A model generated the notes under the pieces. That model saw nothing but the letters and a program-made list of their open reading frames with translations, searched no databases and had not been told where the DNA came from. Shown in pieces: positions 19,801 through 25,800 of a DNA stretch of 64,000 nucleotides (position 1 is its first letter; each line of letters begins with the position of its first letter). Origin of the DNA: an uncultured Planctomycetia bacterium. GTDB taxonomy: Bacteria > Omnitrophota > Gorgyraeia > Taenaricolales > CAZCCH01. The stretch is taken from positions 1,885 through 65,884 of the forward strand of contig CAZCCH010000005.1 in NCBI GenBank assembly GCA_964497315.1, read 5' to 3'. The translations under genes and the position numbers were made by a program.

Positions 19801-22800
19801 GCAGTGTTTCTCTGGGAACGAGGCCTAGCCCAACTACGCAATAAGCCAGGTTTTTTTCTTCTCCGGATTCCAATTTTTTATTTATTAGCCTTCTTAAGTC
19901 CTCTCGTATTAAATCTAATTGCAGTGCGTTTTGGAGCAGTTTGGATGAGCTGTCAAATGCACGTACCTTGCGGACACTATTAGAGCTTAATGATATTTGA
20001 CCCAATATCTCAGATTCCCCACCCGAAAATCCCAATTTTCTCAATTCATTCATCAGGGCTTGTCTTTCATCAGCAGGTATGATTTCCATTAATGTTGGGT
20101 AAGCGGGGACGGGAGAAATTTCAGCAAAACTTGAGCTATCATCCAGCTTTTTATAGGGATTTACTGAAATATCCCCAAGGAATATATTTATATCTTCAGG
20201 ACTAAAATCAACAGGGGGTTTTTCAGACATATGCACAAAATATGGGTGCTTAGTTTCTATAGCTGTTGCCTCATCATCAATGTCATCTAAGCTATGTCCA
20301 GACTTATCTTTTTGAGCCCATAATGTGGGATATTCATCTTTTCTATCAAGATCAATACCTAATTTTTTTGCAGTTTCTGGTTTGTTTAAGGCAGTCCTTT
20401 CAGCAAGTTCAATTGCTAACTTCATAAGATGATATCTTTCTTCTTTTGAAACCTCCATAGATGCAATTTGTTGCATATTTTGTTTTATTGTTTCAGGGTC
20501 TTCATAAATTGTATCAGGCCTATCTTGTTTTGTGATTAATTCAGCTTCAAGCCAGCTTTCAACATCTTGTTTTATTAATTCAGCAAACCTGCTAGAACCC
20601 TCTTCGACTTTATCAGAAGAACTATCCAAAGGTATATAGAAACTAAAGGTAGTCCAATGGTCATCGAAACTGACTTCCATATCACCATTGCGGTTCTTTG
20701 CAAATCTACGCAGAAGAAAAATTCCACCGCCCAGGGCTGATAATTGAAGTGCACCGATTTTCAATACACCTTCTAGCTCGTGGTGTTTTTCTATACCTCC
20801 AAACAAACTAAAATCAACTGCTTTTTCTGGATGTTCGAGTAGCCCATCTCCGCTATCTGCAAGTGCTAGTTTTTTTTCTATCTTCGCCTTTAATTCTCCA
20901 GGATGACTATTATTACTTACTTCAAGATGTAATGTTCCACCTTCAAGTCTTAAGGCCATCCTCAACCTTGTTTCCCTAATGCCATCCATTATTTGTTTAT
21001 GTATTGCCTCTAAGGTTACAAGTCCTTGCTCATAACACTCCTCTAATTCATCTATCCGGTATCTACCATCGGTATTTTCTTTGATGAGTTTTGCTATATT
21101 AAGATTAGACCGTGCACAAAGGCCATTTTTACCAATTTCTTCAAAGAAATACTTGGCTAGCTGCTCACGATCATCTATTATGACTATATCGTCTCTTACC
21201 TGCCTGCATAAATTAAAGAAGGCTTTCATCTCTTTAGCAGTTTTATCTATACCATCAGCAATTGCCAAAGGATTATGACGGTAGGTACTTAAGTTCCATA
21301 CAAGGCGATTAGGTAAGAATTCTGCAATAGCAGTTTTGTGTTTTGCAAGCTCTTCATTTAATTTATTACTTTCTAGGATATGAGCTAATGCTATAGCTGT
21401 TCTTTGTTGTAATTGTTCATCTTCATTTTGCAATAAAGGCACTATGGCAACAATAGTCTTATCTGTTGCATACCAGACTAAGGCGTCAACAAGCTCTGAT
21501 GCTATTTGTGGGTTGTTTCTTTCTTTTGCTAAAGCGCTATGCAAGCTATTTCCTGCACCTACTAGAAGAATAGGCGCTTCTTCTGAAAGACCATCTATCT
21601 GACCCAAATCAGATAGGGCATCTATACAAGTTATTTTATCAATATCTCCAGCTGGCAATGAGACCAGTTCTTTTCTTAGGACAGTAACTGCTGTTTGAAG
21701 AGAGCGAAGAGGTATATATCCACTAGTTGTAGTGCTAAATCTTTCTCTGCGAGTTTTATCTGCATAAACAAGTCCTGCAGCTGCATTCATGCAAACAGTA
21801 TTGTCAGGATCATGTAATAAGCTTATTAAGGTATCTATAGCCTCTTTGGCCATGTCTACATCTTGTTGGTAAGCATGGGGGATTTCCCCATCAACTAATA
21901 CACTGGTTAGCCATTCTATGGCGAGAATTCTTTCTGGTTTGTATCTTTCATCTCCATGCGGGGTAGTAGCTAAGAAAATAGATGCATTAATATTATCGAT
22001 TATTCTAAATGGATTTCGTTGGCGAGTCTGAAAATCATCAACTTCACTGAACCTAGCTTCTTCTGTAGTAGAGTCATCTACTGGGGGACCATTTTCAAAA
22101 CTTTCTCTTGTTAAATTTGGATATAAGCCACCATTAAATGTGCCTCTAAAAATTAAACCAAGCAAGGCCTCGCGTATATCCCAATGCAAGCATTTACCTT
22201 GCAGATAGTAGCTTTCAGAGATTTCAGGAAATTTTTCTATAAAGCCCCAATGGTCACTTACGTGCCACTTTGCTTCCTTGTAAGAACGGTCATCCAGCAA
22301 TGCATCCATTACATCTACTAGTAATAAGATTTCACAAAGACGACGCAATCTTGCATCTTTAATTCTTTCAGGATGATGGTGGTTTCTTATGAGGGTTTTT
22401 ACATCATCAGAGACATTAATTCCTAATATTTCAAGTAATTCCACAGAGAAACCAGCATGCTTATCTATTAATTGCCTTTCAGGATCATCGGGATCCTCTG
22501 ATACAACCTTACTTGAGAAAACCAACTTCCATAAGTTTCTTCGATATAGTTTTCCAATATCATGCAAGGCCGCTGCAGCATCTAAAACCTTTCGGTCTGG
22601 TTCATCTACTTTTAATTCCTCAGCAAGTGTTGCTGCATCAATTCTTACTCTTTGAATATGATCTAATAATGGAGTGATACTTCCTGAGAGTTTTCGTGAA
22701 GAATGAAGCTCTGTGTAAACTGTTTCTATATCAACGTTGCTTACGATTTTAGCAAGTTCATGTCGCAGAGGAGGTCTGATTTCTGAAAAGCGAACAGGGC

Positions 22801-25800
22801 CATATGAAGCTATATTAGGAAATATAGACTGAAATCTTTTGCTAACATCTGCCATTGAATTACATTCCCCTTGTTTCATATCATATATGAGGCTTGCAAG
22901 GTGTGCCATCTGTTGGGCCGAAGGAGTTTTTTTAACTCTAGCATTTTGCAACTCTTCCTCAGCAGTTTCGAGTGTATCTGGTATTTCTGTGTCAGGACCA
23001 AGTAATATCTGGTAAGCCACTAATGCTAAATCTTGGATATCGTAAAGAGTTTTTTCAATATTTCTTAATCCGGTATGGCGTACTTGGGTTACATCATTAG
23101 CGCTTACAAAAGAACCGTGGCCATAGCCCGGATCAATTATCTTGGGATAACCCTGGCTATCCAATAATATATTTTTTCGCAGCAAGGAGAGATCTCCATG
23201 GAATACCTTTTTATCATGAAGGAAAGCTATGCCTTCGAAAACTTGAGCGATAATCCATAGTCGCCTGTTTAGGCCAGGCATTTCTGGAAGTGCCTCAATT
23301 AGAGATGGACCGTCTACATATTCCAATTCGTGATATGTTAGCTTTTCACCTGTGCCAGAGGTAGAAATTGTTCCTGCGGTGATAATATTAACCAATGCAG
23401 GAGGGGCCCCATTCATTTTAGCAATTAGGCCTTTTGCAATCTGGAGATTTTCTATTTTAGAGTGCCCCTCACCTTTTTCTATCCTAACTGCTACCTGAAA
23501 GTTCTCTCCTTTTTTAGGATCAACCGCACGATAGACATACGTATGGCCTCCGAATCCTATCTGTTCTTCGATAATCAATCCACGCCTAGCCAGAGGCAAA
23601 TAGATCCTTCTCCAGAAATTTACATCTTGAATGCTTTGCGTACCCATATCGCCCTGTTTTTTAGGACACTTTGCATTTTGCATACCAAATTTCCACCTTG
23701 ATGCTCCATCTTCTGAAAAGCGGGCAGCTTGTTTTTCTATGTCCCAAACTATGCTATCAGATGGCACAAAATACCTAAGTCTAGTTTTAGCGGGTCTTTT
23801 TATTTCTAGGCCTTGCGTTTTTAAATTATCCCTTAACGCCTCTATATCGAATACGCCATATCTAACATTCCATTTTGCCCAATCAACAAGCTCTTTGTTG
23901 GGATACAAAATAATGAGCCTACCGCCTTCTTTAAGCCTTTTAGATAAACTTGCTAAGAGTTTTTTAATAAAAGTAAATTGCTCATCATATGTATTTGGAT
24001 CAGTGCCATATATGGGTGTTGGGAAAAGAGGCGGATGACAAAGAATGAAATCAAATTTTTCATCATCAGATAAGCATTCATCAAAATCCCCTTGTCTTAC
24101 CTCCATTCTATCTTGCAGGCCTGCTTGTTCAACATTATACTTTGCATCTTCACAAGCGGTTTCTTTTATATCTGTAGCAACGACATGCCCACCTTCTCCA
24201 GCAGCATACATTCCAAGCACGCCAGAAGCGGTACCTAAATCCCATATGTCTTTACCTGCCAAATCTATTCTGTTTGTTTTTAAGTATGCTATAATTTTGT
24301 AACTTCTGGCAAGATAATCGTATGTCCCTTGAGAAATACGCAAGCTGTCACCTGTATACATATGCCTAACAGTTTTTGGTTGTATTTCTGAAAAGCGAGA
24401 AGAAGAGGATGCCTTCTTTTTGGCGGTTTTTTTCTTATTTCTTCCATTATCCCTATCGCGGGATATTCGTGCGCTATACCTTCGTATTGCTCTTATATGT
24501 TCGCTACTATATACTCTATGACCCTTTCTATTTGTAGGTATGTCTATTAACCCTTCTTCTTCCATTCTATCGGTGAGCTTGTTAACCCAGGTTTTTGTTA
24601 TGCCTAGTTTTCCTGCAGCTTGACTTGAAGTATATGTTTTTTTAGTTTTCTTGGGTTTTCTACGATACCACAATTCTCTATTAGGGGAAAGATCCCCAGT
24701 TTTTTTAAACCTATATTTTCTTAGACGAACATATGCTTGCTCAAGGGTTATCTTCCGTGGCAGGCTATCTTTATATAATGTGAAAGCGTCTGGTTTGTGT
24801 TGGTCTAGCATTTTATCAAAATCTTCTAATGCGTCTGCGTTTTCAGCTTCACTAAAACGAGAATGGGTAATATTAGGGGTGGTTTCTTGTATATCAAACT
24901 GTAGGGGTACGTCTTGTTCGCTAAATCGCGACAGGAGACCTTCGCGTTTGAGCAAGTCTCTATTAATATCTTCCTCACAACCTAAGGTCTTAAGGAGTTT
25001 CTCAATGGCTGTTTGTCTATCCGCATCAGTATATTTATCCATGGTCTTACGAATTGCATCTAAGGAAACCTTAGGATACTCATATTTTTCAAGGAATTCA
25101 GGAAACAGATCTGTTACGAAACTCCAGCGTTGTCTATAGCGGTCTATAAAATCCACAACCATCTGAAGAGTTCTTACTCTAGCAAGTGCCCGATCCAAAT
25201 TTGTCATATGGCCTTTTTTCTCAGCAGTAAAGTGCTCATTTAACTCTTGAAATAGCATCATGGTAATAACTGCTTCATGTTTATGGATATATCCTTTATT
25301 AATGGAGATTTTATATATAGCCTCAGAATCCCCCACCGTATCTTTTGAAACAAAACATGCTTCTTCGCTGTCACCATAATGAGGAGCTATAAATCCTGCC
25401 GGTATCATTTTTTCCTTTAAATCTAACAGGTAATCATTAAAACCAAAATAATACGCTACAGTATGAACTGCATGTGATCCCTTAGCTGTCCTTACCCTTG
25501 ACATATCTATATTGACTATCTCACGATCAAGCGTGGGCCTATTAGATGGGATGATTATACCCAGGCGTGGCATAAAGATAATGCCTTCGGGAGTTTGATC
25601 TGGACGGCCATCACCATCAAGGTCCATACACCTAAATTGTTCCTCCCTTTCGTGTGGAAATAGATATCTTGGATCTAGCGCCTTACCTCCTTGTGCTATC
25701 CAACGGGCTCTATTTTCTGCTACTTTTTCACGCACCCTTTTTTTAATGACTGGCCAAGGTAATTCTTGAGTTATGCCATCAATAATAATCCAGAATGTAT

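Follow-up and report, generated by a model that had tools for sequence, protein, structure and literature searches.

A divergent Hanks-type kinase fold, likely a nucleotide-binding pseudokinase or atypical kinase, in a 4,381-residue multi-module protein of an uncultured Omnitrophota bacterium

We analyzed a 64,000-nucleotide stretch of contig CAZCCH010000005.1 (assembly GCA_964497315.1, positions 1,885 to 65,884; hereafter the window) from an uncultured bacterium assigned to the Omnitrophota and found that a giant protein encoded on its minus strand carries a genuine, complete and highly divergent Hanks-type (PknB-like) protein-kinase fold. This kinase-fold module is one self-contained unit of a multi-enzyme protein of 4,381 amino acids (aa). 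From the residues it has kept and lost, we favor on balance a nucleotide-binding pseudokinase or atypical kinase, in which classical Ser/Thr phosphotransfer would be weak or nil. The gene is a single stop-free open reading frame (ORF) beginning with an ATG at 29953, and the module is located within it as follows.

16808-29953, minus strand: giant ORF hosting the module (ORF translation; same product recorded by JGI in four contigs, by NCBI and by ENA)
22793-23710, minus strand: kinase-fold module, residues 2082-2387 (Pfam, AlphaFold2, Foldseek)
23711-23722, minus strand: RFSE at R2078, the N-terminal module border (motif scan)
22781-22792, minus strand: RFSE at R2388, the C-terminal module border (motif scan)

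The original prediction, made from the letters of the DNA and a list of its ORFs, had placed a eukaryote-like Ser/Thr kinase at 22794-23709. The region was correct, while the module proved to be one base wider at each end and to lie on the minus strand. Both RFSE motifs that had been said to delimit it exactly were present at R2078 and R2388, and the four strings quoted for it (IGFGGHTYVY, VAVRIEK, HGDLSLLRKN and DPG) all occurred in the minus-strand translation. On the plus strand, stops were found throughout the translated frame of 22794-23709, and only short, unsupported ORFs overlapped the module. The identical 4,381-aa product was recorded on four JGI metagenome contigs and also in assemblies from NCBI and from ENA, the latter as frameshifted fragments; the giant ORF is thus no assembly accident. 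Other members of its protein cluster were near-identical fragments with frameshifts and were uninformative. No stop codon interrupted the 13 kb of the ORF, and its composition was that of the neighboring genes.

The Pkinase hidden Markov model (HMM) search suggested along with the original prediction gave a clear result. Pfam PF00069 (Pkinase) matched the module alone at 40.9 bits (E 2.1e-10) and the whole protein at 35.5 bits, against a gathering cut-off of 31.7, and PK_Tyr_Ser-Thr matched the module at 34 bits (cut-off 23.1). The Pfam scan of the module matched no kinase-like family beyond these two. The match extended over the following interval.

23123-23572, minus strand: Pfam Pkinase match, residues 2128-2277, profile positions 3-144 of 263, from the N-lobe through DFG

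A phmmer search of PDB sequences returned 120 kinases at E<=0.01, the best being CDK6, GCN2, Mycobacterium tuberculosis PknB, Staphylococcus aureus Stk1 and RIPK1 at E ~1e-6; in the pairwise alignment with PknB, VAVK was paired with VAVR of the module. The top NCBIfam similarity was to PknB_PASTA_kin (the PknB/Stk1 model) at E 5.5e-10, yet far under its equivalog cut-off. When 1.84 billion representative proteins were searched exhaustively with HMMER, 2,362 kinase matches were obtained at E<=0.001, the best of them Hanks-type at ~30% identity. Of the 149 best non-self matches, 107 provided complete kinase domains; we built a profile from these and aligned the module to it (they are the relatives referred to below). 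This profile scored the module at 85 bits, and a second alignment, made by MAFFT with 21 short homologues, agreed with it.

Structure prediction was in line with these searches. From the single sequence, AlphaFold2 (AF2) gave a poor model with a predicted local distance difference test score (pLDDT) of 38.5; with a 22-sequence alignment that included 21 kinase homologues, pLDDT rose to 80.6 and the predicted template modeling score to 0.79. The model had a five-strand N-lobe, an alpha-C helix and a helical C-lobe, which is the bilobal kinase order of strands and helices. Low confidence was limited to the first 28 residues, the last three, and the activation segment at module residues 202-217 after DPG (pLDDT <50). 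In a Foldseek search of the PDB, PknB structures came out on top (E 2.8e-11, probability 1.0, 266-298 aligned columns). In the model, the C-terminal 110 residues, aligned by no HMM, were consistent with a kinase C-lobe. The HMM, PDB and structural evidence thus bore out the claim of a Hanks-type (eukaryote-like) Ser/Thr kinase module, and the kinase resemblance is far beyond chance. The reading that the motifs resemble a kinase by chance, or that assembly or annotation produced them with no kinase domain present, could draw on the poor single-sequence model and on a word-indexed search that gave no close homologue. We find it hardly credible, as the Pfam, PDB and exhaustive-search statistics refute it together with the recurrence of the product in independent assemblies; the composition and the 13 kb free of stops also speak against it.

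We then examined the positions at which protein kinases are most conserved. The aligned elements were:

23531-23560, minus strand: Gly-rich loop IGFGGHTYVY, residues 2132-2141 (profile alignment)
23483-23494, minus strand: beta3 strand VAVR, with the Arg2157 codon AGG at 23483-23485 (profile, MAFFT and PDB alignments)
23417-23461, minus strand: predicted alpha-C helix SKIENLQIAKGLIAK (profile and MAFFT alignments, AF2)
23171-23200, minus strand: catalytic loop HGDLSLLRKN, residues 2252-2261 (profile alignment)
23126-23134, minus strand: DPG replacing DFG, residues 2274-2276 (profile alignment)
22997-23044, minus strand: alpha-F-like YDIQDLALVAYQILLG, following a short, low-confidence activation segment without APE (MAFFT alignment, AF2)

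The Gly-rich loop kept G2133 and G2135, and its third glycine was replaced by Thr2138 (Gly in 83, Ala in 13 and Ser in 10 of the 107 relatives). In VAVRIEK (residues 2154-2160), the beta3 Ala2155 was kept. The lysine of this string had been taken for the VAIK-like Lys, but the profile and multiple alignments placed Arg2157 at that position, where every one of the 107 relatives has Lys. K2160 lies three residues further on, after the predicted strand beta3 (module residues 76-82), and because this distance is odd, its side chain is expected to point to the other face of the strand. The column of the conserved alpha-C Glu (105 of 107 relatives) was occupied by Ala2173. In the catalytic loop, described beforehand as HRDLKxxN-like with Asp and Asn retained, His2252, the catalytic Asp2254 and Asn2261 were indeed aligned with their counterparts. 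The Arg of HRD (94/107) was replaced by Gly2253, a non-RD arrangement (HGD) seen in seven relatives, and the catalytic-loop Lys (103/107) by Ser2256. A two-residue insertion set Asp and Asn six residues apart, as compared to four in all 107 relatives. DPG in place of DFG also held, since the metal-binding Asp2274 and Gly2276 were aligned and the Phe (105/107) was Pro2275. After DPG the module contained no xPE or APE, whereas DxG...xPE was found in 101 of the 107 relatives; the activation segment was short and lacked a P+1 segment.

Retention of the catalytic residues was therefore partial: Asp2254, Asn2261 and Asp2274 were in place, and the beta3 Lys, the alpha-C Glu, the catalytic-loop Lys with its spacing and the APE/P+1 region were not. 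Judged from its sequence, the module belongs to the Pkinase family by the Pfam criterion but fails four residue-level hallmarks. Arg2157 (AGG) and Ala2173 (GCA) are each one change away from a canonical codon, and Ser2256 (TCC) and Pro2275 (CCG) each require at least two, so a single sequencing error does not account for the substitutions.

A pseudokinase has been defined operationally by the loss of any one of the beta3 Lys, the HRD Asp and the DFG Asp (PMC12599244). Because its beta3 Lys is missing, with Arg2157 in that position, the module is a predicted pseudokinase under this definition. The original prediction had offered two functions, a trans-acting effector kinase and an atypical pseudokinase; we favor the latter because the beta3 Lys, the alpha-C Glu, the HRDLK Lys and spacing and the APE/P+1 region have been lost. 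What the module retains (two of the three Gly-loop glycines, the beta3 Ala, the His, Asp2254, Asn2261 and Asp2274) would be the parts that hold nucleotide and metal. What it lacks (the beta3 Lys, the alpha-C Glu, the loop Lys, the DFG Phe and the activation loop with P+1 and APE) would be the parts of a canonical, regulated kinase of protein substrates. Nucleotide is probably still bound, and pseudokinases with a beta3 Lys-to-Arg change such as KSR1 remain able to bind ATP (PMC12599244); phosphotransfer to Ser/Thr would be weak or absent. Among the neighboring methyltransferase, HD, HAD and HEAT modules, the module may function in binding or regulation in a nucleotide-dependent way, or have a non-canonical activity.

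Several observations weigh against the pseudokinase reading. Asp2254, Asn2261, the DxG Asp and the Gly loop have been kept in a very divergent sequence, and because of this the active site may still be in use, with residual or alternative catalysis. The missing catalytic-loop Lys might be made up for by K2260 or R2259, which directly precede Asn2261; in tyrosine kinases, the Arg of HRDLAARN stands in for that Lys. The AGG codon of Arg2157 is a single transition from the Lys codon AAG. The alpha-C alignment is uncertain, with Glu2168 lying five residues before the aligned column, and the agreement in fold is partly circular as the AF2 alignment was made of kinases. Finally, no orthologue of the module was found either among the 1.84 billion representatives (exhaustive HMMER) or among 5.8 billion clusters (word index), so conservation adds no weight to the reading. 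The exhaustive matches consisted of the giant protein itself and generic kinases at <=62.8 bits, and a scan of genome contigs with the methyltransferase-kinase-HD region matched unrelated methyltransferases only.

The same retained residues would also suit an active, constitutive non-RD Ser/Thr effector kinase that is exported, possibly released, and phosphorylates proteins of another cell, with Arg2157 and K2260 or R2259 replacing the lysines. Activity would be compatible with the retention of the Gly-rich loop, the catalytic Asp2254, Asn2261 and the Mg-binding Asp2274, and with the occurrence of HGD in seven relatives, and the host protein has a signal-like N-terminus together with ATP- and SAM (S-adenosylmethionine)-dependent modules that would be without cofactors outside a cell. 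We nevertheless think such a kinase somewhat unlikely. Lys-to-Arg at beta3 is the classical kinase-dead substitution, and here the alpha-C Glu partner is gone as well; the altered catalytic-loop spacing has no counterpart in the 107 relatives; a peptide substrate would find no activation segment, P+1 loop or APE to hold it; and the Pfam match ends at DFG, at profile position 144 of 263. Loss of the peptide-substrate platform with retention of the metal- and nucleotide-binding residues would likewise agree with a kinase fold repurposed for other ATP-dependent chemistry (AMPylation as by SelO or glutamylation as by SidJ, for both of which there is precedent; PMC12599244) or for phosphorylation of a small molecule. 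The HGDLS...N loop and short activation segment recall atypical kinases of the RIO, Bud32 and Kdo-kinase type, and NCBIfam gave weak similarities to Bud32 (E 4.5e-4) and Kdo kinase (E 0.019). The Bud32 score of 19.8 bits was however far under its cut-off of 125, Pfam returned Pkinase and PK_Tyr_Ser-Thr only, and no specific likeness to SelO, SidJ, RIO or APH was seen; we regard this reading as improbable, and more so than that of an effector kinase. A pseudokinase or atypical kinase that still binds nucleotide accordingly remains our preferred reading of the module.

The rest of the giant protein was searched for domains and export signals, with the following features.

29858-29953, minus strand: N-terminal hydrophobic, signal-peptide-like segment, residues 1-32, ending in SLIGPEFALA and followed by SS (Kyte-Doolittle)
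residues 85-307, minus strand: HAD hydrolase (Pfam)
residues ~650-1000, minus strand: long array of HEAT/Adaptin-N repeats (Pfam)
24929-26248, minus strand: conserved alpha/beta domain, residues 1236-1675 (alignment with homologue P0151)
residues 1774-1826, minus strand: MerR-type helix-turn-helix (Pfam)
23873-24256, minus strand: SAM methyltransferase of the preceding module, residues 1900-2027 (Methyltransf_31, 67.6 bits)
residues 2128-2277, minus strand: kinase (Pfam)
22298-22666, minus strand: HD phosphohydrolase of the following module, residues 2430-2552 (HD, 37 bits)
residue ~2705, minus strand: HEAT/Arm repeat (Pfam)
residues ~4084-4147, minus strand: weak methyltransferase signal (Pfam)

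The strongest Kyte-Doolittle peak of the protein was at residues 7-32 (1.88), followed by two weaker ones at 3063-3081 (1.72) and 4026-4044 (1.64). With Lys4 and Lys10 before the hydrophobic segment and ALA/SS after it, the N-terminus resembles a Sec signal peptide or an N-in anchor; either would mean that most of the protein is exported. This segment is the sole basis for describing the protein as secreted, which should be read as a prediction. Export suggests action inside another cell, because ATP- and SAM-dependent enzymes lack their cofactors outside one; this is an argument and not evidence. A homologue search with the C-terminal 1,260 aa gave no match, and the modules at residues 2634-3121, 3275-3618, 3619-3885 and 3886-4238 had no relatives among PDB sequences. 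At residues ~2990-3121 (window 20591-21256, minus strand), LEVSNNSHPG ... ALGGGIFLLRRF looked by eye like the N-box and G2-box of a GHKL/histidine-kinase ATPase; Pfam gave no match there.

The RFSE motifs that flank the kinase belong to a larger set. The giant protein contains 13 copies of RF[S/T/A/V]E, as compared to 0.19 expected from composition (Poisson probability ~7e-20), at these positions.

RF[S/T/A/V]E, minus strand, starting at residues 49, 67, 366, 1676, 1699, 1853, 2078, 2388, 2634, 3122, 3619, 3886 and 4239 (motif scan)

A fourteenth border site reads SFAE, at residue 3275. The 44 other ORFs of the window (15,765 aa) contained no copy, and neither did the ORFs of other fetched loci except one, which overlaps the giant gene. 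The border consensus was [S/A]-R-F-[S/A/T/V]-E, preceded by Ser- and Pro-rich sequence; each Pfam domain lay wholly within one inter-motif segment, and AF2 confidence was low beside both motifs flanking the kinase. DNA-level repeats at the linkers were ruled out: the copies use different Arg and Ser codons, and no extended repeat was present in the DNA, which argues that the motif is maintained at the protein level. RFSE was also rejected as a phosphorylation site for the kinase, several copies having Ala or Val at the position of the Ser. Judging by their placement, the motifs may be candidate processing or docking sites, and such a motif fits recognition by a site-specific processing protease or by a docking partner; searching the literature for cleavage at RFSE gave no result. 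In two pairs, the second motif follows the first after only 18 and 23 residues (49/67 at 29756-29809 and 1676/1699 at 24860-24928, both on the minus strand); these pairs would free short peptides if the motifs were cleavage sites.

We also looked within the giant protein for a protease that could act on these sites. Residues 1236-1675 had a sole homologue, P0151, a 633-aa metagenomic fragment at 33% identity, and a metagenome scan with the alignment of the two gave no match. YSGHTGMG (residues 1317-1324; 25982-26005) and LSCxS (residues 1350-1355; 25889-25906) were invariant between them, which sets His and Cys 32 residues apart. The arrangement is similar to the His-Gly ... Cys dyad of clan CD proteases, and several of these cleave after Arg. 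The domain is a speculative candidate for a processing protease with a His/Cys dyad. Two observations speak against the protease idea: neither Pfam nor PDB sequences gave a match in its favor, and P0151 carries YNFL where the giant protein has RFSE. P0151 also goes on into a GGIDFRNLP segment that the giant protein lacks. Around residues ~1295-1343 (window ~25925-26070, minus strand), the two-sequence profile gave a weak ubiquitin-like match, IYKTTLNGKKVTVYFDP versus IFVKTLTGKTITLEVEP; in the PDB profile search, single ubiquitin reached E 0.03-0.8, and the strong E-values for polyubiquitin were due to repeat summation.

A bolder proposal, which we consider quite unlikely, is that the whole protein is an exported "beads-on-a-string" polyprotein cut at the 13-14 [S/A]-R-F-[S/T/A/V]-E sites, perhaps after Arg, by its own His/Cys domain. 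If so, a set of enzymes, the atypical kinase or pseudokinase among them, would be released into a prey or host cell or onto its surface. This would be a new, non-MARTX route for delivering multiple effectors and would show in concrete terms, for the first time, where HEAT-scaffolded giant proteins with several enzymes are cleaved in uncultivated bacteria. A protein punctuated by RFxE, with ATP-, SAM- and metal-dependent modules behind a signal-like N-terminus, is more unusual than the kinase-fold module itself. A short peptide motif stands at every module border, and if these are processing sites, they are testable cleavage points for giant multi-enzyme proteins.

The giant gene is surrounded by genes that are ordinary for the chromosome of a diderm bacterium (~39% G+C), among them those for LptF/G, KdsA/B, a heptosyltransferase, EF-G, RuvABC, SecDF, RecJ and RecG. 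Other features of the window were:

3810-4934, 5130-6359 and 30340-31497, plus strand: three ATPase genes of the AAA_14/ATPase_2 type, two of them with DUF4143
152-2485, plus strand: 777-aa ORF with no Pfam domain and an HExxH motif (HELLHG ... EGMTEY)
45220-46653, plus strand: HAMP-GAF-HD_5 (HD-GYP-type) protein

One of the three ATPase genes within these 64 kb directly precedes the giant gene at its upstream end and runs on the other strand. The 777-aa ORF carries ARFGE, which is similar to RFxE; its exact sequence with that start was missing from the protein collection. The HD-GYP-type protein points to cyclic-di-GMP signaling in the organism.

Among known systems, the giant protein invites comparison with the long proteins of Omnitrophota, whose "Module 1" repertoire (Archaeovorin-type) includes HEAT/Adaptin-N, methyltransferase, HAD and HD domains and signal-peptide topologies (bioRxiv 10.64898/2026.06.07.730766). 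Whether such long multi-enzyme proteins are cleaved, and at which points, has been stated as an open question (bioRxiv 10.1101/2023.11.21.568195). The HEAT/Adaptin, methyltransferase, HAD and HD domains of our protein mirror that repertoire. The catalogues however concern proteins of >=10,000 aa, as against 4,381 aa here, and no sequence homologue ties the giant protein to them; "PF00069" and "protein kinase" are absent from the main text of bioRxiv 10.64898/2026.06.07.730766. In being a huge, apparently exported polypeptide with serial unrelated enzyme modules that might be cut between them, the giant protein is also like MARTX and other autoprocessing multi-effector toxins. It differs in that Pfam searches of the whole protein and its segments found neither RTX repeats nor a C80 cysteine protease domain, and in having a Sec-like N-terminus where MARTX toxins have a C-terminal type I secretion signal. 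MARTX toxins are cut at Leu-X sites, unlike the candidate [S/A]RF[S/T/A/V]E sites here. We rejected identity with a MARTX toxin for want of RTX/glycine-rich repeats and C80 and because of the predicted N-terminal signal, although the protein could still work like one.

The kinase-fold module was also compared to the MADS kinase MAD6, which was rejected (NCBIfam NF047741, 29.6 bits against an equivalog cut-off of 460); the PADLOC mad6 match of 48.7 bits involved the generic kinase core only. With PADLOC, the methyltransferase (23723-24397, minus strand) best matched MADS mad2 at 81.5 bits next to the mad6 match of the adjacent kinase module (22781-23722, minus strand), and both are probably generic domain similarity. 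In RIO and Bud32 kinases, the catalytic loop is of the HGDLS type, and the activation segment is very short and lacks APE. The module shares both traits, with only weak similarity to Bud32; RIO and Bud32 keep the beta3 Lys, which the module does not, and its closest relatives are PknB-like kinases. Membership in this group was rejected, as Bud32 scored below its cut-off and Pfam RIO1 gave no match at E<=10.

Two pseudokinase families come closer in their lost residues. DYD is defined by a beta3 Arg and a missing alpha-C Glu, ActPs2 also has a beta3 Arg, and both have been modeled as retaining ATP binding, as KSR1 does (PMC12599244). The module resembles DYD in the beta3 Arg and the lack of the alpha-C Glu, and ActPs2 in the beta3 Arg. 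It is not a DYD member, as its motif is DPGYG and the second Asp of DYD pairs with the beta3 Arg; ActPs2 has Asn at the catalytic Asp and a DFG deletion, whereas the module keeps the catalytic Asp. DYD and ActPs2 are membrane-associated, stand-alone proteins of Actinobacteria and Firmicutes, while the module has no detectable family. The best match in both sequence and fold was to the PknB/Stk1-type Hanks kinases (PF00069), with which the module has in common the Gly-rich loop, the beta3 VAV context, the hinge ExVDG, the HxD...N loop, DxG and the alpha-F Asp. It departs from them in the beta3 Arg, the alpha-C Ala, HGD, the loop Ser with its two-residue insertion, DPG and the missing activation loop and APE, and in being located, without PASTA or transmembrane region, inside a 4,381-aa multi-module protein. 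This set of motifs (VAVR, HGDLSLLRKN and DPG, with no APE) is unlike that of any described family, and the module joins the growing list of bacterial pseudokinases as a further orphan, degenerate Hanks-type kinase fold.

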